Shown: positions 137-10,148 of the stretch, piece by piece
How the letters are laid out: each line of letters begins with the position of its first letter
Numbering within the stretch: position 1 is the first letter of the stretch
Source of the DNA: Candidatus Thorarchaeota archaeon
GTDB lineage: Archaea; Asgardarchaeota; Thorarchaeia; Thorarchaeales; Thorarchaeaceae
Assembly (NCBI GenBank): GCA_016840855.1
Contig: JAEORO010000048.1
Location: forward strand, 1-10,220
Direction: 5' to 3'
DNA: 10,220 bases
Notes under the pieces: generated by a model
What the model was told of the DNA's origin: nothing
The model's input: only the letters and a program-made list of their open reading frames with translations
Databases searched by the model: none
Translations under genes and position numbers: made by a program

Positions 137-168
137 CAATCTTACTTTCAATTAAACTGGTTAGATAT

Positions 169-450
169 TTGAATGTGAGGTTCAAGTCTTTTGGGCCCGT
201 ACGTAGGCTCTTGAAAGAAAAGGTCATCGATGTTGAGGTTCCCCATGACTCAACGGTTCGACAAGTTGTCAATAGAGTTATTGAGATAGGCGGAAAAGAG
301 CTCAAGAATCTTATAATACATGATGATGACATCAGTGGCAATCTAATTGTGATGCTAAATAAGAAGGATGTTGAAACGTTGGGCGGTATTGATATAGTCG
401 TTCATGATGGTGATGAGGTTGCTATTCTTCCTCACGTCCAAGGCGGTTAG
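169..450 (+). CDS. MoaD/ThiS-family ubiquitin-like small archaeal modifier (SAMP-like sulfur carrier)
   Basis: 93 aa with a TTG start, a beta-grasp pattern (VRFKSFG...IVMLN...DGDEVAILPHVQGG) and a C-terminal di-glycine. Confidence 0.92.
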   Translation: MNVRFKSFGPVRRLLKEKVIDVEVPHDSTVRQVVNRVIEIGGKELKNLIIHDDDISGNLIVMLNKKDVETLGGIDIVVHDGDEVAILPHVQGG

Positions 451-461
451 GTGTTGTGAAT

Positions 462-1757
462 ATGGGTCTCAAATATTACCTTGAAACGTATGGTTGTTCA
501 CTAAACGCAGCAGATTCTGATATCATTGTAGGGCGTCTTGAGGCTATCGAAGGAAGGCGAGTCAAAAACATTAGTGATGCCGAACTGATACTACTGAATA
601 CGTGTGGTGTAAAGGAACCCACTGAGGATAAAATCATCCATAGACTTGAGGAATTAGCACATGAAACCACTCCAATTGTGGTGACTGGATGCCTCCCAAA
701 GATATCTCTTGAACGAGTTGAGAATGCAATTCCAGGATTTGCTGCATTGTTGGGACCACAATCCATCGAAACATTAGCATCAATTATTCCTCGTATTCTT
801 GAGGGTGAGAGAGGAATTCAACACATCGAATCTGACGGTACTTACAAACTGAAATGGTTTGCTGGACCCCCTGATAGTGTGATTTGCACCATTCCCATCT
901 GTGAGGGATGTCTAGGAAGCTGTGCTTATTGTGCAGTGAAATTTGCGCGGGGGAAGGTCAGAAGTTACTCAATTGAGGATATCCACCAAATTATAGAACG
1001 TTGTGTCCATCTTGGCTATCGAGAAATCAGACTGACGTCACAGGATGCTGCTGTATATGGAAGCGACACCGGAGAAACACTAGCAAATCTCATGAGATCC
1101 ATAGGCAGCATTGACGGACCACATAGATACAGATTAGGGATGTTCAATCCTAACATTGTGATGAACTCGATAAATGACTTGATAGAATCAATGGACAACG
1201 AGCACTTTTTCAAGTTCTTCCACATTCCTCTCCAATCCGGAAGTGACCGACTTCTGAAAACAATGAAGCGTCGTTATATCGTTAATGAATGGGAAAGCGT
1301 GGTTCAGAGAGTCCGGAAACGATTCAAGAATGCAACGATTGCTACGGACATCATAGTTGGATTTCCTGGTGAAACTGAAACTGATTTTGAACAAACCTTA
1401 GATCTGATTAGACGCGTAAAACCTTCAGTCACCAACATCTCAAAGTATGGCGACAGACCCAATACCTTGGCTTCAAGATCAAAGGATAAAGTGGAAACCT
1501 CCTTGAAGAAACAGCGAAGTAGAATTTTGACAAAGCTTGTAGACGAAATCCTTGTAGAGTCCAATGAAGAATGGATTGGATGGGTTGGTCCAGTCATAAT
1601 CACCGAAGAGGGCTCCAAGGGTGGTATGCTCGGACGTAACGAGTCTTACAAGACAGTGATTGTTCATGGGAATTTGAGTCCAGGAACTATAGTCGATGTG
1701 GAGATTACATCATCAGCGCGAACGCATCTGAATGGTGAGGTCAGGTCCGATGCTTAA
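462..1757 (+). CDS. mtaB: Radical SAM tRNA methylthiotransferase, MiaB-like family, most likely archaeal e-MtaB (t6A37 C2-methylthiotransferase)
   Basis: UPF0004 domain Cys motifs (ETYGCSLN, NTCGVK, TGC), the CxxxCxxC motif GCLGSCAYC, HIPLQSGSD, TDIIVGFPGET and a C-terminal TRAM domain. ATG at 462, alternative GTG at 456. Confidence 0.9.
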   Translation: MGLKYYLETYGCSLNAADSDIIVGRLEAIEGRRVKNISDAELILLNTCGVKEPTEDKIIHRLEELAHETTPIVVTGCLPKISLERVENAIPGFAALLGPQSIETLASIIPRILEGERGIQHIESDGTYKLKWFAGPPDSVICTIPICEGCLGSCAYCAVKFARGKVRSYSIEDIHQIIERCVHLGYREIRLTSQDAAVYGSDTGETLANLMRSIGSIDGPHRYRLGMFNPNIVMNSINDLIESMDNEHFFKFFHIPLQSGSDRLLKTMKRRYIVNEWESVVQRVRKRFKNATIATDIIVGFPGETETDFEQTLDLIRRVKPSVTNISKYGDRPNTLASRSKDKVETSLKKQRSRILTKLVDEILVESNEEWIGWVGPVIITEEGSKGGMLGRNESYKTVIVHGNLSPGTIVDVEITSSARTHLNGEVRSDA

Positions 1758-2763
1758 TCTCTATGTCAATGACCTTTCCTGATTCAGCACTCTTTCTTGA
1801 AGCCTCAACAATCTCCAAAGCACAGATAGCATCATCAATACTTACCTTCGGGGTTTCTCCTGTCTTGATACATCTCAGGAAGTCGTTGAGTACTTCTCTT
1901 ACAGGTTCGCCGTAGACCTTTATCGTAGCACCTCTCTCTGGAAGGCTTATTGTGTCGCCTTTCGCTATCGGAACTTGATCTAGGTGTTGTACCTTGATTA
2001 TTTGACTGAACAAGTCCAGTACTAATGCTCCTTTTGTGCCTGAAACATCCATGTACCGTCGGCGTCCAGCGTACTGTCTGGAGAGATGGAAGAAGTGCTC
2101 TGTTCCTGAATCAAACTTCACCATGATAGTTCCACTGTTGTGAATGCCGCCCATAGTGTTACTCTGAGCATAGAGCCTTGCTGGTCCATGACTTATTCTT
2201 GCCATAATGTCAAAGTCATGGACTCCAATATCTTCGAAGACATCACCAAGCGATGGAATCCTCTCAGGTGCTACAAATCCCCGTCTATCGTGAATCACAG
2301 TTCGAGGTGTCCCAATTGCATCAGTTTCAATGAGAGAGAGGGCTTTTCCAACAATAGGATTATAGATCTCTGAGTGAGAGATAAGGGTGACAATTCCTCG
2401 CTCCTTCAATATCACTGCAACCCTCTTTCCGTCTTCCAGCGTACTTGCCAGCGGCTTTTCAATCAGAATTCCTTTGATCCCATCATAGCTTGTGGCTATG
2501 GTATGAGCGATAGTGGCATGAGTGGCGGTGGGTGTGGCAATAACTACACCTTCTGGGTTTGTTTCATCAAGCATACTCTCGAAGTCAGTGAATGCAATCG
2601 TGTTATGATCCTTAGCCACACGTTCAACAGTGGTCTTGTCCTTGTCAGCCACTCCTACTAGAACTCCCATGTCACTAAGAATACGTGCATGTATACGACC
2701 CATATTACCTGTTCCAATAATTACTATCCTTCGAGATGACGTTATTAACCACTCCTGATGCAT
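1741..2763 (-). CDS. Gfo/Idh/MocA family NAD(P)-dependent oxidoreductase
   Basis: Rossmann motif IIGTGNMG, ATPTATH, IEKP and DIGVHDFD motifs. It overlaps the 3' end of the methylthiotransferase convergently by 17 bp. The start is uncertain. Confidence 0.92.
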   Translation of the reverse strand: MHQEWLITSSRRIVIIGTGNMGRIHARILSDMGVLVGVADKDKTTVERVAKDHNTIAFTDFESMLDETNPEGVVIATPTATHATIAHTIATSYDGIKGILIEKPLASTLEDGKRVAVILKERGIVTLISHSEIYNPIVGKALSLIETDAIGTPRTVIHDRRGFVAPERIPSLGDVFEDIGVHDFDIMARISHGPARLYAQSNTMGGIHNSGTIMVKFDSGTEHFFHLSRQYAGRRRYMDVSGTKGALVLDLFSQIIKVQHLDQVPIAKGDTISLPERGATIKVYGEPVREVLNDFLRCIKTGETPKVSIDDAICALEIVEASRKSAESGKVIDIEIKHRT

Positions 2764-2896
2764 TCAGGCTCTTCGCGTTCGTTTTGGCCTTTATACATTA
2801 CCATAGTTCCCCGCGTGTAATGAGAATGCAAGATTTTAGTAACTTCATGTTGAAAAAGCGGCGATTCTTATCATGACGGTCTTATATTGACTCAAC

Positions 2897-3076
2897 TGGA
2901 TTGATGTATGAATCCAAGATTCACACACACACCTTCAGGGACTCGCTAAAAAGACAATACTGGTCTTGGATCACAATGCCGCGCTGAGTCCCATTACACT
3001 TCAGAAGACAACTCCCTCCCTCGGACCCACCTCGCGCAAGCGGTGCGATTTGCCTCGTCGCACCCGGGGTGGGTCC
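2897..3076. ncRNA. Candidate structured non-coding element (unassigned ncRNA or non-autonomous mobile-element end)
   Basis: 12-bp stem GGACCCACCTCG (3023-3034) / CGGGGTGGGTCC (3065-3076) encloses a 7-bp hairpin GGTGCGA/TCGCACC. A second domain GGGACTC (2938-2944) / GAGTCCC (2986-2992) encloses AAGAC/GTCTT. Small hairpins lie at 2897-2923. Confidence 0.4.
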
Positions 3077-3084
3077 CTATACAA

Positions 3085-3217
3085 CCTCATCGATGACCAA
3101 GAGTCAAAGCCTGAGTCTAAAGAACACTACACCCTTTGTCGCTGTGGTGCATCCAAGAATAAACCGTTCTGTGATAATAGTCACAAAAAGATAGAATTCA
3201 AGGATGACAAGAATTAG
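3085..3217 (+). pseudogene. C-terminal CDGSH iron-sulfur domain fragment (within ORF 2966-3217, whose N-terminal half is probably not real)
   Basis: LIDDQESKPESKEHYTLCRCGASKNKPFCDNSH matches the CDGSH [2Fe-2S] motif. The upstream in-frame sequence coincides with the GC-rich hairpin and has no convincing start. Confidence 0.6.
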
Positions 3218-3441
3218 AACTCTGCTTTAGGCGTGATTTCTTGCAACTCAGGGTTGAGCGGCCGCTGTACACAAGTTCATAAGGAAACCTTCTGAGAAAC
3301 CTATTGCAGGTACACGAAAAGCGAGCAGCGTTTTCAATCGTAGGAATTATCGAGAGTTCTTTTTCAGGCATCGTAAATTTCGTAGAGAGATACTATACTA
3401 GTTTTGACGACTTGCATATCGCATTTAGCGAGTGAACAACA

Positions 3442-3978
3442 ATGGGTTATGAAGAACGTGAGCCAATTGAGGCTACAGTGGCTGAATTAAAGCCACGAAT
3501 GAAGAATGTCACCATTTCCTTCAAGGTGATTAGTATGGGCGAAGAGCGAGAGATTGAATCCCGTCAAGATGGATCATCTCATCGTGTCTGTGATATCACT
3601 GTTGGTGATGAAAGCGGAACTGTTCAGGTTCCACTTTGGGATGAAACTATTGATAGCATTGAAGAAGGTGCTACCTACAATCTAACCAATGGATACACAG
3701 GACTTTTCCGAGGAAACTTACGACTAAATGTTGGTAGGTATGGTAAACTCGAGCAATCTGAAGAAAGCATCGAAGATGTCAATATGACCGTTGATATGTC
3801 CGCTGAAGAACACGAAGATGACCGACCCCGCAGGAGCTACGGCGGTGGTGGTCGAGGTGGCAGCGGTGGATATGGCGGCGGTGGCCGACGCAGTGGCGGA
3901 TATGGCGGCGGTGGCGGTAGTGGTGGATATGGTGGTCGTGATCGCCGTGGTGGCGGTGGCGGCGGCCGTAGATACTAG
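3442..3978 (+). CDS. ssb: Single-stranded DNA-binding protein, crenarchaeal-type single OB fold with Gly/Arg-rich tail
   Basis: VAELKPRMKNVTISFKV...VGDESGTVQVPLWD...FRGNLRLNVG resembles the Sulfolobus-type SSB OB fold. The low-complexity C-terminus is rich in GGYG and RGG. Confidence 0.88.
   Translation: MGYEEREPIEATVAELKPRMKNVTISFKVISMGEEREIESRQDGSSHRVCDITVGDESGTVQVPLWDETIDSIEEGATYNLTNGYTGLFRGNLRLNVGRYGKLEQSEESIEDVNMTVDMSAEEHEDDRPRRSYGGGGRGGSGGYGGGGRRSGGYGGGGGSGGYGGRDRRGGGGGGRRY
3868..3915 (+). repeat. Coding tandem repeat with a 30-bp period in the ssb tail
   Basis: GGATATGGCGGCGGTGGC occurs at 3868-3885 and 3898-3915 and encodes GYGGGG. Confidence 0.75.
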
Positions 3979-4022
3979 ATACCTCTTTGAAAGTAATCTA
4001 AAACAGTAATAGCTGTTGAATT

Positions 4023-4062
4023 GTGGGCAATCATTATTGATTGCTCACCAATCCTTCTTTTT
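4023..4062 (+). terminator. Hairpin plus T-tract terminator after ssb
   Basis: GTGGGCAATCA-TTAT-TGATTGCTCAC (4023-4048, 11 bp including one G-U pair) is followed by CCTTCTTTTT. Confidence 0.65.
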
Positions 4063-4138
4063 GTGGTTAAAATCTAAAACAGATTCTTGTACTATTTCTA
4101 CTATATTCCTAAAGGTTAGAATATAATCCAAGAAATTG

Positions 4139-4161
4139 TGGTATGGAGGCAGAGATTCAGT
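4139..4161 (-). repeat. att-like copy R1 of the tRNA-Leu 3' end (most distal, most degenerate)
   Basis: TGGTATGGAGGCAGAGATTCAGT, 15/23 identical to 9518-9540 (15 of the first 19). Confidence 0.65.
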
Positions 4162-4214
4162 AATCCGGTACTTCTTTATCATATAGGGATTATAGTATAC
4201 ACGAGGTTTCTGAA

Positions 4215-4937
4215 TTGAAACGACTCCCTTTGGGACCTGTATTGGTCCTTCTTGGTGTATTTGGTGGAGGTCTTCTCTGGATTATCCTAATTGAGCTAAG
4301 GTTTTGGTACCTCATCACTGAGGTCTATAATGGTGGAGGTCCAGGAGAAGCAATATGGTCCCTTGACCCTCTCTTCACGATACTTGCTGCAATCCCAGGA
4401 ATAATTCTCGTTTTTGTTGGACTCATTGTTTCAGTCCAATCCCCACCCGAACACACAGAGGAAGTCAAACCCGAAATAAACTATCCTCAGTTGAATTTAT
4501 TCTATGTAGGAGAAATCTGTCTGCTTGTTACAATCGTTGTGAGCCTCATCGGTTTTCTTGGTGTTTCAAATCTTTTTGTTGAAGTAGTTAGAGTTTCTGC
4601 TATAATAATGGGGGTAATTGTGATAACATGCATAACCCACATGTTTTCTTTGGCCCTCTCGGGATCATTCAGTAAACTAGACTCATCAAGACTCTCAAGA
4701 AATACTGCAATACTATTGGCTGCAGAACTTGTGATACTCTTTTTAGTTGTCTTAACACTCCGATTATACACTTGGAGCTTTATCAGGACGACAACATTAG
4801 TGATTACATCATCCGGTTTCCTAGGACTCTTATTCATAACTCCAAGGTTTCTGAAGTTCGAAAGCAGGAATCGTGCGGAGGGCGAGATTCAACCATTGTG
4901 CTTAGACATGAGGATAAATAATGCGCAAATCAATTAG
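4215..4937 (+). CDS. Hypothetical multi-pass membrane protein (cassette 1)
   Basis: 240-aa ORF with about 6 hydrophobic segments. The TTG start is preceded by GAGGT. It reads through repeat R2. Confidence 0.75.
   Translation: MKRLPLGPVLVLLGVFGGGLLWIILIELRFWYLITEVYNGGGPGEAIWSLDPLFTILAAIPGIILVFVGLIVSVQSPPEHTEEVKPEINYPQLNLFYVGEICLLVTIVVSLIGFLGVSNLFVEVVRVSAIIMGVIVITCITHMFSLALSGSFSKLDSSRLSRNTAILLAAELVILFLVVLTLRLYTWSFIRTTTLVITSSGFLGLLFITPRFLKFESRNRAEGEIQPLCLDMRINNAQIN
4871..4893 (-). repeat. att-like copy R2
   Basis: TCGTGCGGAGGGCGAGATTCAAC, 19/23 identical, including a 17-nt exact run. Confidence 0.9.
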
Positions 4938-4968
4938 GTTGAGACTAGTGCCAAGAGGAAGATCGACG

Positions 4969-5520
4969 ATGAGTAGCAAGTCACAATCAATGCAGGAAAT
5001 CGAGGGAATCTTTCACAAACATGGATTTAATGACTACAAATGGATTCATCCAAAGGACATTGTAGTTGCCAACTGGGTACGCATGAAGTGTGTTTATGGA
5101 TGTCCCACATATGGAGAATGTGCATCCTGTCCACCTAATACCCCGTCTGTTTCAGAATGCAGAGATTTCTTTGATGAATATACAGAGATAGCAATTTTCC
5201 ACTTTCCGATAGAAGTGGACAAACCAGAGAATCGACACGATATAGTGACTGAAACTGACAGGAGGCTTCTTGGGTTGGAAAAGGAAGTATTTCTCTCAGG
5301 AAATGAAAAGACGTTTCTTCTGTTTGCTGGTAACTGTAAACTTTGTACGGAGTGCGTCAGCTCCAGAGTAGACTGTAAACACCCAAAACTCTCCCGTCCC
5401 ACCTCAGAAGCACTAGCTATAGATGTTTTTTCAACCGCTCGCGCTGTAGGCTATCCAATTAATGTCTTGCAGGATTATAATGAAACCATGAACAGATACG
5501 CTTTCCTCTTGGTGAGATAA
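4969..5520 (+). CDS. DUF2284-family predicted metal-binding protein (cassette 2)
   Basis: WVRMKCVYGCPTYGECASCPP, GNCKLCTEC, CKHP..RPTSEALAIDV. The ATG at 4969 with upstream GAGGA is preferred over 4921. Confidence 0.85.
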   Translation: MSSKSQSMQEIEGIFHKHGFNDYKWIHPKDIVVANWVRMKCVYGCPTYGECASCPPNTPSVSECRDFFDEYTEIAIFHFPIEVDKPENRHDIVTETDRRLLGLEKEVFLSGNEKTFLLFAGNCKLCTECVSSRVDCKHPKLSRPTSEALAIDVFSTARAVGYPINVLQDYNETMNRYAFLLVR

Positions 5521-5531
5521 TCTAAAAGTTA

Positions 5532-5554
5532 TGGCGCAGAGGGTGAGATTTAGT
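5532..5554 (-). repeat. att-like copy R3
   Basis: TGGCGCAGAGGGTGAGATTTAGT, 17/23 identical (17 of the first 20), 11 nt after the DUF2284 stop. Confidence 0.82.
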
Positions 5555-5570
5555 AGTTGAAGTAGTCAAT

Positions 5571-5583
5571 GAAAATTTAATAC
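5571..5583 (+). promoter_or_regulatory. Putative BRE/TATA promoter of the cupin cassette
   Basis: GAAAATTTAATAC lies about 30-40 nt upstream of ATG 5615. Confidence 0.45.
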
Positions 5584-5614
5584 TCTGATACGCGATTTGG
5601 CAATTGTGAGAATA

Positions 5615-5950
5615 ATGGATGCTGAACCATATCCTGATTGTATCAGGAACCTACCAAAAGCTAAGATTCCACTCCAAGGAGTTCAAGCGTGGATTGCTCA
5701 AGGCGACGCTGTTCAGATTGCCTTTTTTGAGATTGAGCCAATTGGAGTTGTGCCTCCGCATAGCCACAGCGCACAATATGGATTTGTCATTGAAGGCGAG
5801 ATGTTGCTGACAATCCATGATGAAACAAAACTCTACAAGAGAGGTGACTCATACTACATTCCCGAAGGAGTCATCCACTCAGCTGAATTCAAGACTTTCT
5901 TTAGAGCAATGGATTTCTTTGCTGAGCATGGAAGGTACGAAACTGAATAG
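5615..5950 (+). CDS. Cupin-2 domain protein (cassette 3)
   Basis: VPPHSH...QYGFVIEG...GDSYYIPEGVIHSA cupin motifs. ATG at 5615, alternative TTG at 5597. Confidence 0.9.
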   Translation: MDAEPYPDCIRNLPKAKIPLQGVQAWIAQGDAVQIAFFEIEPIGVVPPHSHSAQYGFVIEGEMLLTIHDETKLYKRGDSYYIPEGVIHSAEFKTFFRAMDFFAEHGRYETE

Positions 5951-5978
5951 ACCACATGACTCCTCTGACGTTTGAAGA

Positions 5979-6001
5979 AGGTGTGGAGGGCAAGATTCGT
6001 A
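5979..6001 (-). repeat. att-like copy R4
   Basis: AGGTGTGGAGGGCAAGATTCGTA, 18/23 identical. Confidence 0.8.
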
Positions 6002-6034
6002 GAAAATTCACTCTAGAAACTACGCAACATCTGT

Positions 6035-6047
6035 AAAGATTTAATAC
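6035..6047 (+). promoter_or_regulatory. Putative BRE/TATA promoter of cassette 4
   Basis: AAAGATTTAATAC lies about 35 nt upstream of GTG 6080 and has the same TTTAATAC core as at 5576. Confidence 0.45.
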
Positions 6048-6079
6048 ATTCTGCTGGCTGAATTATCTCGTGGGTATTC

Positions 6080-7201
6080 GTGGAACTTCTAAAGTTTCTA
6101 GACAAGAAGCTAATTGTAGTGAACATTGCTAAACTAGCTTTTGTCTTTCTTTTGCCAGTTCAATTCGATATGTCCATCGGAACAGACGGAACAAGTTATG
6201 GAATATCCAGTCAGAGTTACATCATTATAACAGGGACTGTATCTTCGTCATTCGCGATATTTCGATGGATAATAGTACGATACCCTATATCGTTGATTTT
6301 GGCTCTAGTAGCTATAATTTTCACTATTAGGTTACATCAACTCCATGGAAAATCATATCCAATCAGGTCTGCGTCTGCAGTAGGTCTTTTACTATCAATT
6401 ATACCGATTTACTATTTCATCCAATTCTTCTTGGTAAGTAACCTGTATTGGTTTGATATCATGACGACTGCACCAGTATCAATTGGTTTTTGCAGTAGTC
6501 TAATTCTTATCTTTGTTATTCTTCCTTCGATAAGTTGGTACTCTGATTCAGTATCTGCAGATAGGTCTATCCCGAAGAGAGAAGATGATCAAGAGGATGC
6601 AGAAAAGAAAAGAACGACTCTTACTCCGAAGATGAGTAGTTATCTGATGCTCCTTGCTGCATTTCTTCTTCCTGGAATGATTCTGTTACAAATCTCTGGT
6701 CCAAATCAGATTATTAGGCTCATAGGATTTCTTCTGCAATTCAGTTTTGGTTTCTCTACAGACTTCTCTCAGCTGGGACTGGCGTATACTCTTCAAGATA
6801 TTACTTCATGGGACTTTTTTGGAGTTTCTATTGTTTGCTGTTCTGCAAGTCTTGTCTTTGCATGGACCGTTATGAGGTATGTTCATGGTATGGGTACAAA
6901 GAAACTTGCGATTTTGGTTGGACTTCTTTCCGAAATACCTCCAATTCTATACGCAATAGGCGGACATGCTTATCGGTCAGTCTTGCTAATTCTTCCGCTT
7001 CCTGTAGTTCTTATCATCGGATTACTGGTATTGCGATTTGCTAAAGCAATTGAACCGAGTAGAAAAAGCTCAGAACTAGATCAGTCTGTGATTAAGGTGC
7101 CTTTGAAATTTCGGATGAAATCGCTTTTGTATATGCGACATAAGAAATCAGATGAAACTCCAACAGAGCGCAGCGATGCGAGTGATGAAGAAGCGCACTA
7201 A
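6080..7201 (+). CDS. Hypothetical multi-pass membrane protein (cassette 4)
   Basis: 373-aa ORF with two hydrophobic halves of about 4 TM segments each, separated by a charged linker, and a charged C-terminal tail. Confidence 0.8.
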   Translation: MELLKFLDKKLIVVNIAKLAFVFLLPVQFDMSIGTDGTSYGISSQSYIIITGTVSSSFAIFRWIIVRYPISLILALVAIIFTIRLHQLHGKSYPIRSASAVGLLLSIIPIYYFIQFFLVSNLYWFDIMTTAPVSIGFCSSLILIFVILPSISWYSDSVSADRSIPKREDDQEDAEKKRTTLTPKMSSYLMLLAAFLLPGMILLQISGPNQIIRLIGFLLQFSFGFSTDFSQLGLAYTLQDITSWDFFGVSIVCCSASLVFAWTVMRYVHGMGTKKLAILVGLLSEIPPILYAIGGHAYRSVLLILPLPVVLIIGLLVLRFAKAIEPSRKSSELDQSVIKVPLKFRMKSLLYMRHKKSDETPTERSDASDEEAH

Positions 7202-7286
7202 CTGACAGGAAATCATACCGGTAGACATCATCAGGGCATTTTACTGAGAGTATTAGAATTATGGTGGATGCGATACTAATTCAATG

Positions 7287-7309
7287 TGGTGCGGAGGGCG
7301 AGATTTGAT
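7287..7309 (-). repeat. att-like copy R5
   Basis: TGGTGCGGAGGGCGAGATTTGAT, 22/23 identical. Confidence 0.95.
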
Positions 7310-7337
7310 ATGGGAGTATAACGTATGTGATTATCTG

Positions 7338-7793
7338 ATGGCAGATCACAACTATTCATACATTTGCAAAGAATGTGGCGGATACTGTTGTACACTAGGA
7401 GGAACTCTTGCGACAAAGTTGGAAGTAGACAGAGTCATTGAAGCTGGATATCCGAATAAGTTCATTGAAATTATGGAGAACTGTTATGTTACAGATTTTG
7501 GAAAAGACCTGATTTGTCCTTATCTTAAAGAATCCACCTGTGAAATTTATCCTGTACGCCCCTTAATTTGTAGGAAATATCCGATTTTCTCAACAGATGG
7601 GGAAGAACATTATTTGGTCCATTGTCCCCTGACTCAATACCTTTCAAAGAATGATTTTGCTCAATGTATTGAAGCTGCAATAGAAGTTTCTGAAGACCTA
7701 TATACATGTGCCCAGAGATTTATGGCTCCATTTGGCTCTGGAATTGATGAACGAATGCACAAATTCAAGATGGATAGAATTGAATTGGAATGA
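7338..7793 (+). CDS. YkgJ-family cysteine cluster (CxxCxxxCC, Zn/Fe-chelating) protein (cassette 5)
   Basis: CKECGGYCC...CPYL...CEIYPVRPLICRKYP. ATG 7338 is preferred because the 7284 start lies on the other side of repeat R5. Confidence 0.88.
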   Translation: MADHNYSYICKECGGYCCTLGGTLATKLEVDRVIEAGYPNKFIEIMENCYVTDFGKDLICPYLKESTCEIYPVRPLICRKYPIFSTDGEEHYLVHCPLTQYLSKNDFAQCIEAAIEVSEDLYTCAQRFMAPFGSGIDERMHKFKMDRIELE

Positions 7794-7802
7794 AAACGAT
7801 GG

Positions 7803-7825
7803 TGGTGCGGAGGGCGAGATTTGAG
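7803..7825 (-). repeat. att-like copy R6
   Basis: TGGTGCGGAGGGCGAGATTTGAG, 22/23 identical, 9 nt after the YkgJ stop. Confidence 0.95.
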
Positions 7826-7896
7826 CCCTAATGGCCATAGAAATGACTCATATGCAATACTTCACAATATCTCTACCTCGCGATGGAGGAACTTTG

Positions 7897-8901
7897 ATGG
7901 AGTATAGCGCAGTTCAGGATAGAGCATTTACAAAAGATGTTGACCAGTATCAACACCATCGAAGAGAAAACGCACAATTATTCGAATATCTCAAGAAGTT
8001 TCCACTAATGCCCGAATCATTGGATATCAGCTATGTTGACTTGTGGGACTTTCATTCCTTCAACCTTCACAAGATACAATATTGCGTAGAACCCACACTC
8101 TCTATCTTTGCATATCTTCTCGTGCCAAAAAATCTGAAGAGCAGAGTCCCAGGGATACTTGCATTACATGACCATAATGATGAGTACAAAGCTGGCAAAT
8201 CTGAAACGATTGGACTTGTTCAAAATCCAGAATACACAAAGCTGGAAGCAGTCCTGCCTGATCCCAATCATATCACACCCAAAAGCCATTCGCAGTTTGC
8301 ATACGCAAAGAATCTCTGTGAACGGGGTTTCGTTGTACTTGCGCCTGACTTTATTGGGTTCGAAGAGTATAGAGACGTGAGTGATTATTACGATGAGCCC
8401 GGTTTCATCAGAGGATTTGAGGAGATGCTAAGCTCAAAGTATCTCCTTTATGGGTCATGCTTAATGGCAAAACACCTTCATGATCTCTATGTGGCCGTAT
8501 CTGTTCTGACCTCAGTCAAGCAAGTCGAGCCAGAAAAGATAGGAGTCATTGGACACTCATTGGGGGGTGAAATGGCCTCAATATTGGCAGCCTTTGACAA
8601 TCGAATCAAGGCTGGAGCAGTGTCATGTGGGTTTGTGTCTTATGAGGCTTTTGAGAAGAGTGGTCGCATGGAAACAGCAGAAGCCATCATCCCTAATTTC
8701 CGAGCTGACAAACATGATTTCAATTTCTTCTTGAATATGATTCCACCCACACCATTTCTTCTGACACATGATGCACGAGACTCAGCTCATCTTTCAACTG
8801 AAGTAAAGAAGAATCTCAAGATTTTTGAACATAACAGAGGACATGCTTTTCCCGAAACCGCCCGAGAGCGAGCATATGAATTTCTAGCAACCCATTTGTG
8901 A
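7897..8901 (+). CDS. Alpha/beta hydrolase (dienelactone hydrolase / acetyl xylan esterase-like) (cassette 6)
   Basis: AYLLVP...PGILALH, GFVVLAPD, nucleophile elbow GHSLGG and C-terminal GHAF histidine. ATG 7897 follows a GGAGGA SD at 7885-7890; the ORF is open from 7831. Confidence 0.88.
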   Translation: MEYSAVQDRAFTKDVDQYQHHRRENAQLFEYLKKFPLMPESLDISYVDLWDFHSFNLHKIQYCVEPTLSIFAYLLVPKNLKSRVPGILALHDHNDEYKAGKSETIGLVQNPEYTKLEAVLPDPNHITPKSHSQFAYAKNLCERGFVVLAPDFIGFEEYRDVSDYYDEPGFIRGFEEMLSSKYLLYGSCLMAKHLHDLYVAVSVLTSVKQVEPEKIGVIGHSLGGEMASILAAFDNRIKAGAVSCGFVSYEAFEKSGRMETAEAIIPNFRADKHDFNFFLNMIPPTPFLLTHDARDSAHLSTEVKKNLKIFEHNRGHAFPETARERAYEFLATHL

Positions 8902-8914
8902 ATTCAAGAAGAAG

Positions 8915-8937
8915 TGGTACGGAAGGCGAGATTTGAA
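8915..8937 (-). repeat. att-like copy R7
   Basis: TGGTACGGAAGGCGAGATTTGAA, 21/23 identical. It also shares the flanking AGAAG (8910-8914) with the tRNA flank (9513-9517). Confidence 0.93.
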
Positions 8938-8958
8938 TCGATGAAGTATCCATTTCAA

Positions 8959-9444
8959 TTAACTGTAAGATGTCCTATTGATGACCCCACAATACATGCA
9001 TTTTACAGCTGTTTTTCCATCTGTTTGTTCTAGTGGCGCATGGCAATTTTCACAGACGAGATATCGCGGATCAAACACTCTATCGATTCGTCTAGAATTC
9101 TTGGGTACTGCTACTCTTGCTTTTCTACCAGTAGATAGGTTTACCAGACCCCAAGCTAGACATATTATGGTCATTGGTAAGACAACCATCAAAAAGAGTA
9201 GAATACCAGACCACCAATCAGGATCGGTGAAGAAGGACAGAAAAACAAATACTGAAATTACAATTGCGAAACCAAGTTTATCGTATGCTCCACTTGCATT
9301 TTTGCATGTGACAGAACAATATAACCCGCTTATCCAGCGGGCATCTTCTGCAGTTAGCCACCTTTTACTCTCTGTGGAACCGCACCATTTACATCTCATC
9401 ACCATCTTTCTATCGACAGCAATGTAATGCTTATCATTTGACAT
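8959..9444 (-). CDS. Hypothetical two-TM membrane protein with N- and C-terminal zinc-finger motifs (cassette 7)
   Basis: CKWC...YCSVTC, then two hydrophobic helices, then a CENC...CMYC zinc ribbon. Confidence 0.8.
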   Translation of the reverse strand: MSNDKHYIAVDRKMVMRCKWCGSTESKRWLTAEDARWISGLYCSVTCKNASGAYDKLGFAIVISVFVFLSFFTDPDWWSGILLFLMVVLPMTIICLAWGLVNLSTGRKARVAVPKNSRRIDRVFDPRYLVCENCHAPLEQTDGKTAVKCMYCGVINRTSYS

Positions 9445-9517
9445 AAAGACTCTCAGGACTCAATACGTGCGAAGTGGGATAAACTCTACTCTCTCAGGGT
9501 GTTATTGAAAATAGAAG

Positions 9518-9635
9518 TGGTGCGGAGGGCGAGATTTGAACTCGCGAACTCCTACGAGACAGCCTCTTCGTGGCAAAACACCACAAAGTCTAGGCCCTCA
9601 ACCTAGCGCCTTTAACCTGGCTTGGCAACCTCCGC
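9518..9635 (-). tRNA. trnL: tRNA-Leu(GAG) with encoded CCA and a 30-nt intron at position 43/44
   Basis: Minus strand reads GCGGAGG TT GCCAAGCCAGGTTAAAGGC G CTAGG TTGAGGG CCTAG [intron] TCTCGTAGGAGTTC GCGAG TTCAAAT CTCGC CCTCCGC A CCA. Anticodon GAG at 9599-9597, long variable arm, A73, mature length 88 nt. Confidence 0.95.
9560..9589 (-). other. tRNA intron with bulge-helix-bulge motif
   Basis: Intron ACTTTGTGGTGTTTTGCCACGAAGAGGCTG. Central 4-bp helix GCCT/AGGC, bulges AGA and TGT, intron stem CTTTGTGG/CCACGAAG. Confidence 0.88.
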
Positions 9636-9644
9636 ATATGAAAG

Positions 9645-10148
9645 GACAAGAGCCAATACTCCGTATTCCAGGAGAGCGCTTCCGGAGTATTGAACTATGG
9701 AGTTCATCGTTTTTCGTTGAAGTATGTATGATAAGGATTTCTGTTGCAAGAGAAGATCCTAGTCGAAAAGAAGAAAGTTTGTTCGGAACAGAGGGAGTCA
9801 CACCAAAGTGACAAACCAATCTGTTCTCTTTGTATTGAACTACTTGGATTACCTAGTAGTTCCAGCCAGCCACTCAAAAAAGGCTGGTTTTTGACCCCTA
9901 ACGGGGGGCTTTTCGGTATTTTTGTTATATTTCATTTATTTCACCTATTAGCTATAGATTTTATTTTGATTTCGCTTAAAACTATGGGAACCTGCACAAG
10001 TTTCTGAGTACTTTTCTATGTGAAAATAGAGTGATGGAGCCCCGGGCGGGATTCGAACCCGGGAGTCCATTCTGAGATACGATTATGACCATTAGCTTAT
10101 TGAAGTCCTAGAAATTTTATAACCTCCTTTTTGACAAGAGCCAATACT
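9645..10148. repeat. 16-bp perfect direct repeat
   Basis: GACAAGAGCCAATACT occurs at 9645-9660 and 10133-10148. Confidence 0.8.
10035..10061 (-). pseudogene. 3' fragment of a second tRNA (Thr-like), probable att remnant
   Basis: Minus strand CGGG TTCGAAT CCCGC CCGGGGC T CCA gives a T-arm, acceptor 3' strand, U73 and CCA. No matching 5' half (GCCCCGG) is in the window. Confidence 0.75.

Follow-up and report, generated by a model that had tools for sequence, protein, structure and literature searches.

One-gene units bounded by copies of the tRNA-Leu 3' end in a Thorarchaeia genome: a candidate array of small mobile cassettes

The tRNA-Leu locus and its repeats

The region considered here is an entire contig of 10,220 bp (JAEORO010000048.1, or C209; hereafter the window) from a genome bin of Candidatus Thorarchaeota archaeon (GCA_016840855.1, or G000), which comprises 3.36 Mb in 259 contigs and is 92% complete and 6% contaminated. 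Near one end of the window lies a tRNA-Leu(GAG) gene with an encoded CCA (9518–9635, minus strand), and copies of its last 23 nt recur through the interval that separates it from a CDGSH iron-sulfur protein gene (2966–3217, plus strand), the conserved flank at the far end of a region that varies among relatives. We interpret this interval as an array of very small mobile cassettes. On the other side of the CDGSH gene, a radical-SAM gene at 456–1757 has an ortholog in all 24 sampled genomes of the genus (58–88% identity).

The tRNA gene was recognised with the Rfam model RF00005 (9521–9635, minus strand; 47.7 bits, E = 7e-8), the encoded CCA occupying 9518–9520. Its anticodon loop reads UUGAGGG in the Rfam alignment, which gives a GAG anticodon and therefore a leucine identity. 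Default ARAGORN missed the gene, and ARAGORN with introns allowed typed it as Ser(tga), in our reading a mis-typing due to an insertion of 30 nt in the variable region. Alignment with the intron-less ortholog of genome G005 places this insertion, a non-canonical intron, at 9560–9589 (minus strand), after position 46 of the intron-less form. Several related tRNA-Leu genes are missed by Rfam because of their differing insertions; by BLAST, the 5' half of tRNA-Leu follows the last repeat copy in 13 related loci.

The 3'-terminal 23 nt of the tRNA gene (9518–9540) constitute the master copy of the repeat, against which mismatches were counted; all copies have the orientation of the tRNA (minus strand). 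Moving away from the tRNA, copies with two, one and one mismatches are found at 8915–8937, 7803–7825 and 7287–7309, followed by copies with five mismatches at 5979–6001, six at 5532–5554 and four at 4871–4893. The copy at 5532 aligns with degenerate copies upstream of orthologs of the cupin gene that it precedes. With up to six mismatches allowed, eight copies were observed against 0.017 expected from 300 shuffles of the window, one of the eight belonging to a second tRNA, whose 3' end lies at 10035. The outermost copy, at 4139–4161, has eight mismatches and by count stands at noise level (0.5 matches expected per strand; three matches with eight mismatches on the opposite strand). We regard it as a decayed copy because it aligns with a two-mismatch copy upstream of the orthologous membrane-protein gene on another contig of the bin (C127), the homology ending upstream of the latter copy. 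Copies tend to decay with distance from tRNA-Leu. An earlier analysis made without database searches (the sequence-only reading) had listed these repeats and the units between them; all of its positions hold the motif on the plus strand, and its unit lengths (732, 661, 447, 1308, 516, 1112 and 603 bp, starting from the outermost) are correct. Inverted repeats were found at the unit ends neither in the window nor in an alignment of YkgJ units (see below), and folding at the junctions is no stronger than in shuffled controls (z from −0.62 to +1.01; both strands of three of the seven junctions).

Each of the seven units contains one gene, as the sequence-only reading had proposed and as open reading frames (ORFs) and Pfam searches bear out. 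The unit adjoining the tRNA holds the only cargo gene on the strand of the tRNA (8959–9444, minus), which encodes a membrane protein with a weak zinc-finger match (E = 0.009); its ortholog (family F57) adjoins the tRNA in genome G007. The remaining genes, all on the plus strand, encode an alpha/beta hydrolase (DLH; 7831–8901) that has no homolog in 20 related loci, a YkgJ-type CxxCxxCC protein (family F9; 7338–7793) present in ten loci including the window and at different array positions, a membrane protein (6080–7201), a cupin (Cupin_2, family F20; 5597–5950), a DUF2284 protein (family F38; 4921–5520) and a further membrane protein (family F55; 4215–4937) with an ortholog on C127. The most likely start of the YkgJ gene is 7338 rather than 7284 or 7310. 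Of the family names given previously, DUF2284, Cupin_2, CxxCxxCC and DLH are confirmed by Pfam; the two membrane proteins on the plus strand match no Pfam family, and the zinc-finger match is weak. The ORF at 4215–4937 runs through the repeat at 4871–4893 and extends beyond the start of the following gene (4921), its last 22 codons coming from the repeat and the leader of the next cassette. None of the window ORFs resembles a recombinase gene, no primase or helicase family was detected among the cargo scanned, and most cassette genes have no close second copy elsewhere in the genome.

To the left of the seven units lies an ssb gene (Pfam Ssb-like OB fold; 3442–3978, plus strand), a probable eighth cassette with an eroded left repeat. 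In genome G016 ssb is flanked by repeats with zero and one mismatch, and roughly half of the relatives lack it at this locus; therefore, the array probably begins further left than the sequence-only reading had placed it. It most likely starts at the end of the CDGSH gene, ssb being the oldest recognisable cassette. The genome contains five ssb paralogs (in the window at 3442–3978, on C161 at 8205–8639 and on C259, C257 and C147), which are 48–88% identical to a relative's copy. At least two of them are located in tRNA-linked variable regions, one just past a tRNA-Glu repeat.

Repeat-bounded units in relatives, in metagenomes and at other tRNA genes

The region downstream of the radical-SAM gene was compared in 20 genomes of the genus, in many of which the contigs end within a few kb. 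In most loci of sufficient length the stretch from the CDGSH gene to the tRNA contains copies of the Leu 3' end, the number and spacing of which vary. Clustering of the ORFs yielded recurrent cargo families, namely YkgJ, cupin, GNAT, acyl-CoA thioesterase, DUF2284, PrcB_C, TauE, prephenate dehydratase, ssb and several without a recognised family. Their order is not fixed in relatives, as expected for the gene-capture array that the sequence-only reading had envisaged. The thioesterase gene precedes YkgJ in G005 and follows it in G009 and G022; the GNAT gene follows YkgJ in G005 and precedes it in G018 and G002; the cupin gene precedes YkgJ in the window and follows it in G018 and G002. Since these orders conflict, deletion alone is insufficient to explain them. 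In the two last-named genomes (loci L008, 7402–8210, and L010, the latter from G002) the YkgJ and cupin genes abut or overlap and the repeat between them is lost, a fusion of two cassettes into a two-gene unit.

When the YkgJ units of seven genomes were aligned together with 80 nt of flanking sequence, homology was found to extend from the left repeat (7287–7309 in the window) to the last base of the right repeat, the flanks being unrelated. The unit measures 513–516 bp and has identical boundaries in all seven genomes, in differing contexts; homology in the cupin units is bounded in a similar manner. The base following GATTTGA goes with the right-hand gene, and the purine-rich tract preceding the repeat goes with the left-hand gene. 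The expectation that homology breakpoints coincide with the repeats was thus borne out for the YkgJ and cupin units, as well as for the metagenome contig described in the next paragraph. Identities of the YkgJ proteins are nearly uncoupled from those of the radical-SAM proteins (Spearman 0.18; 45 pairs, which are not independent), the corresponding value for the neighbouring GFO oxidoreductase being 0.73. The closest YkgJ protein to that of the window (86.8%) is found in G024, the radical-SAM protein of which is 63% identical. These incongruent identities suggest that cassettes have been exchanged between species.

Variation between populations was examined in the assembled contigs (Logan) of four public runs. 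A contig of 1030 nt, ∼97% identical to the window, covers 5064–5949, continues with 35 other letters and resumes at 7294–7402. It lacks exactly the unit between 5979 and 7287, that of the membrane-protein gene at 6080–7201, the shorter side of the joint being 109 nt. In seven of the nine joints in the run contigs the shorter side is at most 29 nt, most ending inside a repeat; these could not be placed and were not used, nor were stretches lacking cover in some runs. Among the joints listed none runs backward, a result that is uninformative on rare forms. The loose ends left of 9518 differ among the runs.

In order to sample the arrays more widely, the first 22 nt of the Leu site were searched for in metagenomes and found in more than 115 contigs, of which 80 were analysed. 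At least two copies (six mismatches or fewer) were present in 51 of these loci. Successive copies delimit 91 units, whose length has a median of 603 bp (quartiles 495 and 1034; range 144–6116) and whose coding cover has a median of 0.81. Exactly one non-overlapping ORF of at least 50 aa occurs in 68 of the 91 units, and in 65 of the 74 units not exceeding 1300 bp. Clustering of the 125 ORFs gave 76 families, of which 52 are singletons. In 51 units the longest ORF runs antisense to the tRNA, and in 37 it runs in the sense direction; the orientation of the repeat is fixed. Purines make up 85% of the 10 nt preceding a copy, versus 51% thirty bases further out (190 copies). Read on the strand of the tRNA this tract is a pyrimidine-rich trailer, which the cassette would need to supply. 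Mean mismatches by rank from the tRNA are 2.25, 2.24, 2.79, 3.67, 6.0 and 5.0, and mismatch correlates with rank at a Spearman coefficient of 0.30 (86 fragments from 40 arrays, not independent of one another).

Arrays of this kind are not restricted to tRNA-Leu. The last 23 nt, with CCA, of the 35 Rfam-called tRNA genes of the genome were searched for within 8 kb on each side (at most five mismatches). Copies of a gene's own 3' end were found 21 times downstream, in the orientation of the tRNA, and twice upstream; one of the 21 and both upstream copies are other tRNA genes. The motif is therefore not scattered genome-wide, as the sequence-only reading had required; its description of the array as anchored at tRNA-Leu proved too narrow, since nine of the 35 tRNA genes (Leu, two Ala, Cys, Met, Glu, Asp, Gln and Val) are followed by at least one fragment. 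The copies in each array match the tRNA gene that it adjoins (Leu ends at tRNA-Leu, Ala ends at tRNA-Ala, Cys ends at tRNA-Cys and so forth), and the tRNA genes of the genome have an encoded CCA. The repeated block begins at the same point, T-loop position 54/55, at the Leu, Ala, Cys, Met, Glu and Gln tRNAs, the blocks of the Asp and Val arrays being longer (∼61 and ∼48 nt). At Leu there is also a second, longer block of ∼42–45 nt, seen in 12 of 115 fragments.

The array at tRNA-Ala(GGC) on C201 contains seven to nine copies. Its cargo, encoded on both strands, includes a TIR-domain gene beside a PLD-nuclease gene, a fragment of a DNA methylase, a FilR1-type regulator and proteins that match no family. 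The TIR and PLD genes (locus L034, C201, 10048–11691) form a two-gene, defence-like unit nearest the tRNA. Homologs of cassette genes elsewhere in the genome (C8, C108, C126, C144, C147, C257 and C259) are mostly not accompanied by recognisable tRNA-end copies, and transfer of cassettes between tRNA types is therefore not demonstrated; exceptions are GNAT and F59 genes beside tRNA-Leu(TAG) and the ssb paralog just beyond the tRNA-Glu repeat. In two metagenome loci TnpB-like genes (PF07282; L136, 4856–5446, and L097, 4250–5350) lie between an array of Leu fragments and an opposite-facing tRNA-Leu(TAG), a placement that could stem from an inversion between Leu sites.

In the class as a whole (87 genomes, 17 genera) no genome lacks the few matches expected from Leu isoacceptors, and other genera of the family likewise show clusters of matches on a single contig. 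The sole genome of the second family has five matches on five contigs. In a complete genome from another Asgard class (G036) none of 13 tRNAs had a downstream copy within 6 kb, the tRNA matches listed for this genome numbering 15.

Several further features of the assemblies deserve mention. Many contigs of metagenome-assembled genomes end near the radical-SAM gene, inside the array or at its edge (loci L001, L002, L007, L011–L013, L016, L017 and L019), and several tRNAs of the present genome have no more than ∼130 nt between them and the end of a contig; the arrays seem to be sites of assembly breakage. The same bin contains, on C127, a second radical-SAM copy (79%), which points to either a co-binned relative or a paralogous or duplicated locus. 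C127 (L038) carries a second version of the locus, with other cassettes and Leu repeats at 534, 775 and 1408, and C45 (L041) terminates in the 5' half of a tRNA-Leu. In the window itself, the 3' part only (∼33 nt, to CCA) of a tRNA-Thr(CGT) is present at 10035–10067 (minus strand), as seen from alignment with intact orthologs, the 5' part being replaced by unrelated sequence. Neither Rfam nor ARAGORN called a tRNA at 10035–10067, where relatives possess the whole tRNA-Thr(CGT) gene. This fragment, ∼150 nt from the contig end, may be the far end of another array. An identical 16-mer is found upstream of tRNA-Leu (9645–9660) and upstream of the tRNA-Thr fragment (10133–10148).

Known systems, mechanism and rival explanations

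Among known mobile elements, the cis-mobilizable elements (CIMEs) related to the integrative and conjugative elements of streptococci are flanked by attachment (att) sites, lack an integrase, occur in tandem at a tRNA-type site and are moved in trans by the integrase of a related element. The Thorarchaeota units likewise have att-like sites on both sides and no recombination genes; however, a cognate integrase-bearing element is known for CIMEs and none was found for these arrays. Casposons are also inserted near the 3' ends of archaeal tRNA genes, sometimes in tandem, and are characterised by Cas1 and polymerase genes, terminal inverted repeats and target duplications of ∼14–15 bp. In contrast, the repeats considered here are direct and measure 22–23 or ∼42 nt, no inverted repeats are present at the unit ends, and units of 0.45–1.3 kb leave no room for a Cas1 gene. 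Classical archaeal elements integrating at tRNA genes were reportedly discussed in terms of 'gene capture' by She and co-workers in 2001. The array shares with such elements a direct repeat derived from the 3' part of the tRNA and an intact tRNA at one end, but not the integrase of their own or the multi-kb, multi-gene size (units here are 447–1308 bp). Archaeal elements of this type are described as ∼9–23 kb long with repeats near 44 bp (PMC9897764), and for archaeal viruses and plasmids tandem integration is reported, as is fixation of the DNA in the chromosome through loss of the integrase (PMC8371274). One-gene units, long arrays and interspecies reshuffling are not described in the accessible parts of these two papers. 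In Heimdallarchaeum, the Aloposons are stated to integrate at tRNAs and to carry giant genes (PMC8813620).

Closer parallels are offered by tycheposons and integrons. Tycheposons, together with the tRNA-bound genomic islands known from Prochlorococcus, are presented as using several tRNA targets, with partial-tRNA separators and remnants, newcomers that push older elements inward and niche and defence cargo, all of which recall the present arrays; yet all 937 elements reported carry a recombinase and many have replication genes, the elements extending over several kb with cargo reaching 10 kbp or more and numbering one to two per genome on average (10.1101/2020.12.28.424599). The Thorarchaeota units, in contrast, are ∼0.45–1.3 kb long, hold one gene and no recombinase or replication module, and stand up to eight or more in a row. 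In its workings the array resembles an integron: the cassettes are recombinase-less, mostly single-gene and diverse, are parted by a recombination site and vary in order among relatives; integrase-less clusters (CALINs) are common in integrons as well. It differs in having neither intI nor attI, with no PF00589 match genome-wide, and in that a tRNA 3' end, copied directly, takes the place of the folding attC hairpin as its site. The junctions do not fold, and an attC-like mechanism is therefore not supported. Furthermore, the array hangs on a tRNA gene, many tRNAs per genome are used and the cargo faces both ways. Integrons, a bacterial system, are also reported from archaeal metagenome-assembled genomes, with enrichment in Asgard archaea, in a study whose available text does not contain the word 'tRNA' (PMC9668308). 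The sequence-only reading had considered its array undescribed in archaea; this stands for the one-gene, integrase-less form and not for tandem tRNA-flanked elements as such, which are known from tycheposons and archaeal tandem integrations. No published account of archaeal one-gene cassettes with tRNA 3' fragments at their borders was found in the literature searched, which lacks most subscription journals; the supplements of the tycheposon and archaeal-integron studies could bear on this point.

We favour, at a probability of roughly 0.6, the interpretation that one-gene cassettes devoid of an integrase are inserted and rearranged by recombination at the T-loop-to-CCA site of tRNA genes, through an enzyme acting in trans. 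A cassette would consist of one gene (rarely two), a copy of the tRNA segment from the T-loop to CCA and a pyrimidine-rich trailer, with no recombinase gene. The free cassette, presumably circular, would recombine with the tRNA gene within the shared block of 22 nt, so that the tRNA takes its 3' end and trailer from the incoming copy and its former 3' end is displaced as a fragment; newcomers would thus enter beside the tRNA and old fragments would decay. A T-loop-to-CCA block, with the incoming copy restoring the tRNA, was reportedly identified by Williams in 2002 as a signature of classical integrase insertion. Excision, re-entry and interspecies exchange would shuffle the order. As candidates for the enzyme we consider a tyrosine integrase supplied by a mobile element in transit and a host protein not recognised as such. 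The circle, the crossover site, the tRNA-proximal entry and the trans-acting enzyme are what we infer from the arrangement. The gene-capture array put forward in the sequence-only reading is supported in part: it survived the three refuting conditions set for it (a fixed gene order, breakpoints away from the repeats, a scattered motif) and the missing cis integrase was confirmed, but no candidate for the recombinase acting in trans was found in the genome.

Several observations weigh against this interpretation, among them the outcome of the recombinase search. Profiles for tyrosine recombinases (PF00589), SSV-type integrases (PF16795), serine recombinases (PF00239) and Y1 transposases (PF01797) gave no match each in the genome, while control genomes gave matches for these profiles and for that of reverse transcriptases; this agrees with the absence of an integrase in cis noted in the sequence-only reading. 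PF00589 matches (20 in total) were obtained in eight of 28 genomes of the genus, and the other 20 have none, though most carry arrays. Of the PF00589 loci, 14 were examined, mostly on short contigs: no array was present and ARAGORN called no tRNA, and their ORFs have no homolog in the 80 metagenome loci. A motif resembling a tRNA 3' end lies beside a PF00589 gene at a contig end in one of the 14 (L043), the sole such case. The 22-mers of the Leu site and of an Ala variant had no match in a viral contig collection. Taken over the genome, the PF00589 loci examined and the viral contigs, no integrase-bearing element using the same att site was found. The decay gradient is weak, rank 1 being about equal to rank 2. 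Runs of genes downstream of tRNAs are found without detectable repeats in G013 and on C8. Some copies in the tRNA-Ala array bear the T stem of another tRNA-Ala, and, as we read it, a crossover in the T-loop with a foreign T stem would leave the resident tRNA with an imperfect T stem. Finally, some of the cargo (ssb, prephenate dehydratase) resembles housekeeping genes.

A Xer-type recombinase was likewise not found in the 20 genus genomes without a PF00589 match. The single TnpB-like gene of the genome (PF07282) is located on C54, near no array, and one short contig of G020 carries three integrase genes in tandem.

The main rival explanation dispenses with a dedicated recombinase: classical elements would have seeded duplicates of tRNA ends, between which the host loops out DNA by homologous recombination, reinserts it at any copy and swaps it with the DNA of relatives. 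The empty recombinase search, in the genome itself and in the 20 genus genomes without PF00589, speaks for it, as do the weak decay gradient, expected if entry is not restricted to the tRNA, and the fusion of the YkgJ and cupin cassettes in G018 and G002 where the repeat was lost. Archaeal recombination can act on very short homology; nevertheless, 23 nt is short for efficient single crossovers. The common T-loop 54/55 boundary at six tRNA types and the second discrete boundary at Leu (12 of 115 fragments) fit fixed crossover sites better, and it is left unexplained why each family bears a tRNA end and a purine-rich tract. We therefore regard it as unlikely. Alternatively, the units might be worn-down viruses or plasmids of several kb, serially integrated, from which nearly all genes including the integrase have been lost. 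Tandem integration, partial tRNA copies and degenerate remnants are on record (10.1101/2020.12.28.424599; PMC8371274), Thermococcaceae elements of 9–23 kb with 44-bp repeats are reported (PMC9897764), and some of our units are larger, up to 6116 bp. Such wear is, however, an improbable source of sizes so small and narrow, with a median of 603 bp and exactly one ORF in 65 of the 74 units up to 1300 bp, or of a YkgJ unit of 513–516 bp with identical boundaries in seven genomes and differing contexts; deletion cannot by itself yield conflicting orders, and the 80 metagenome loci yielded no integrase fragments.

Two further explanations were considered. The repeat could be a signal acting on the genes beside it, such as a terminator, a processing site or a site of antisense pairing with the tRNA, spread by duplication rather than by mobility; in the sense of most of the window cargo it is complementary to 22 nt of the tRNA 3' end and lies in untranslated regions. 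That each array uses the end of its own tRNA, that copies decay with distance, that repeat orientation follows the tRNA as cargo faces both ways (51 versus 37) and that the junctions tested do not fold above shuffled controls (z from −0.62 to +1.01) make this very improbable. Slightly less credible still is retro-copying, in which the tRNA 3' end would prime reverse transcription on transcripts with a complementary site and the copy would be joined to the tRNA gene. The repeat begins with TGG and is complementary to the tRNA 3' end including CCA, much like a retroviral primer-binding site; but the reverse transcriptase profile PF00078 has no match in the genome, CCA is already encoded in its tRNA genes, the cargo faces both ways and most cassette genes have no close second genomic copy as a source.

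tRNA introns at the block boundaries and implications

Insertions vary among the orthologous tRNA-Leu(GAG) genes of the genus. The gene of G005 has none, those of the window and G022 have one of 30 nt after position 46, and those of G013 and G009 have one of ∼30 nt that follows position 65 and immediately precedes the T-loop; G002 has two, after position 46 and in the T-loop region, and G007 has one in the T stem. A survey of the window, related loci L003–L020 and metagenome loci L059–L138 identified 64 distinct tRNA-Leu genes sharing the 3' end, with 53 insertions of at least 8 nt, of which 24 follow position 46 and ten follow position 65. Thus, 34 of the 53 are situated exactly at the boundaries, positions 46 and 65 being the two commonest insertion points and marking the starts of the long and the short repeated block, respectively. 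Introns have been proposed to shield tRNA genes from integration, and the coincidence fits this proposal. It also fits the creation of tRNA introns by integration of mobile DNA, an origin put forward by Sugahara 2012 (PMC3293823). The coincidence could be trivial if the long fragments were copied from intron-bearing genes.

These observations leave room for a broader proposal, which we hold only tentatively and consider doubtful in its full extent: Thorarchaeia may own an integron-like cassette system in which many tRNA 3' segments serve as docking sites for one-gene circles, the recombinase being either not recognisably of the tyrosine or serine type or present only transiently, and the same activity would create or select non-canonical tRNA introns. 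In any case, the coincidence of introns and block boundaries provides a testable handle on the origin of archaeal non-canonical tRNA introns, and an enzyme with so short and nearly universal a target would be of potential interest as a tool. The cargo of the arrays comprises metabolic and defence-type genes, including the TIR and PLD pair at tRNA-Ala. The arrays bear on the open question of how genes are gained and shuffled in Asgard archaea, of all known organisms those most closely related to eukaryotes. If the arrays are active, they would constitute a second, integron-independent route to libraries of single genes, resting on the tRNA genes that every cell has.

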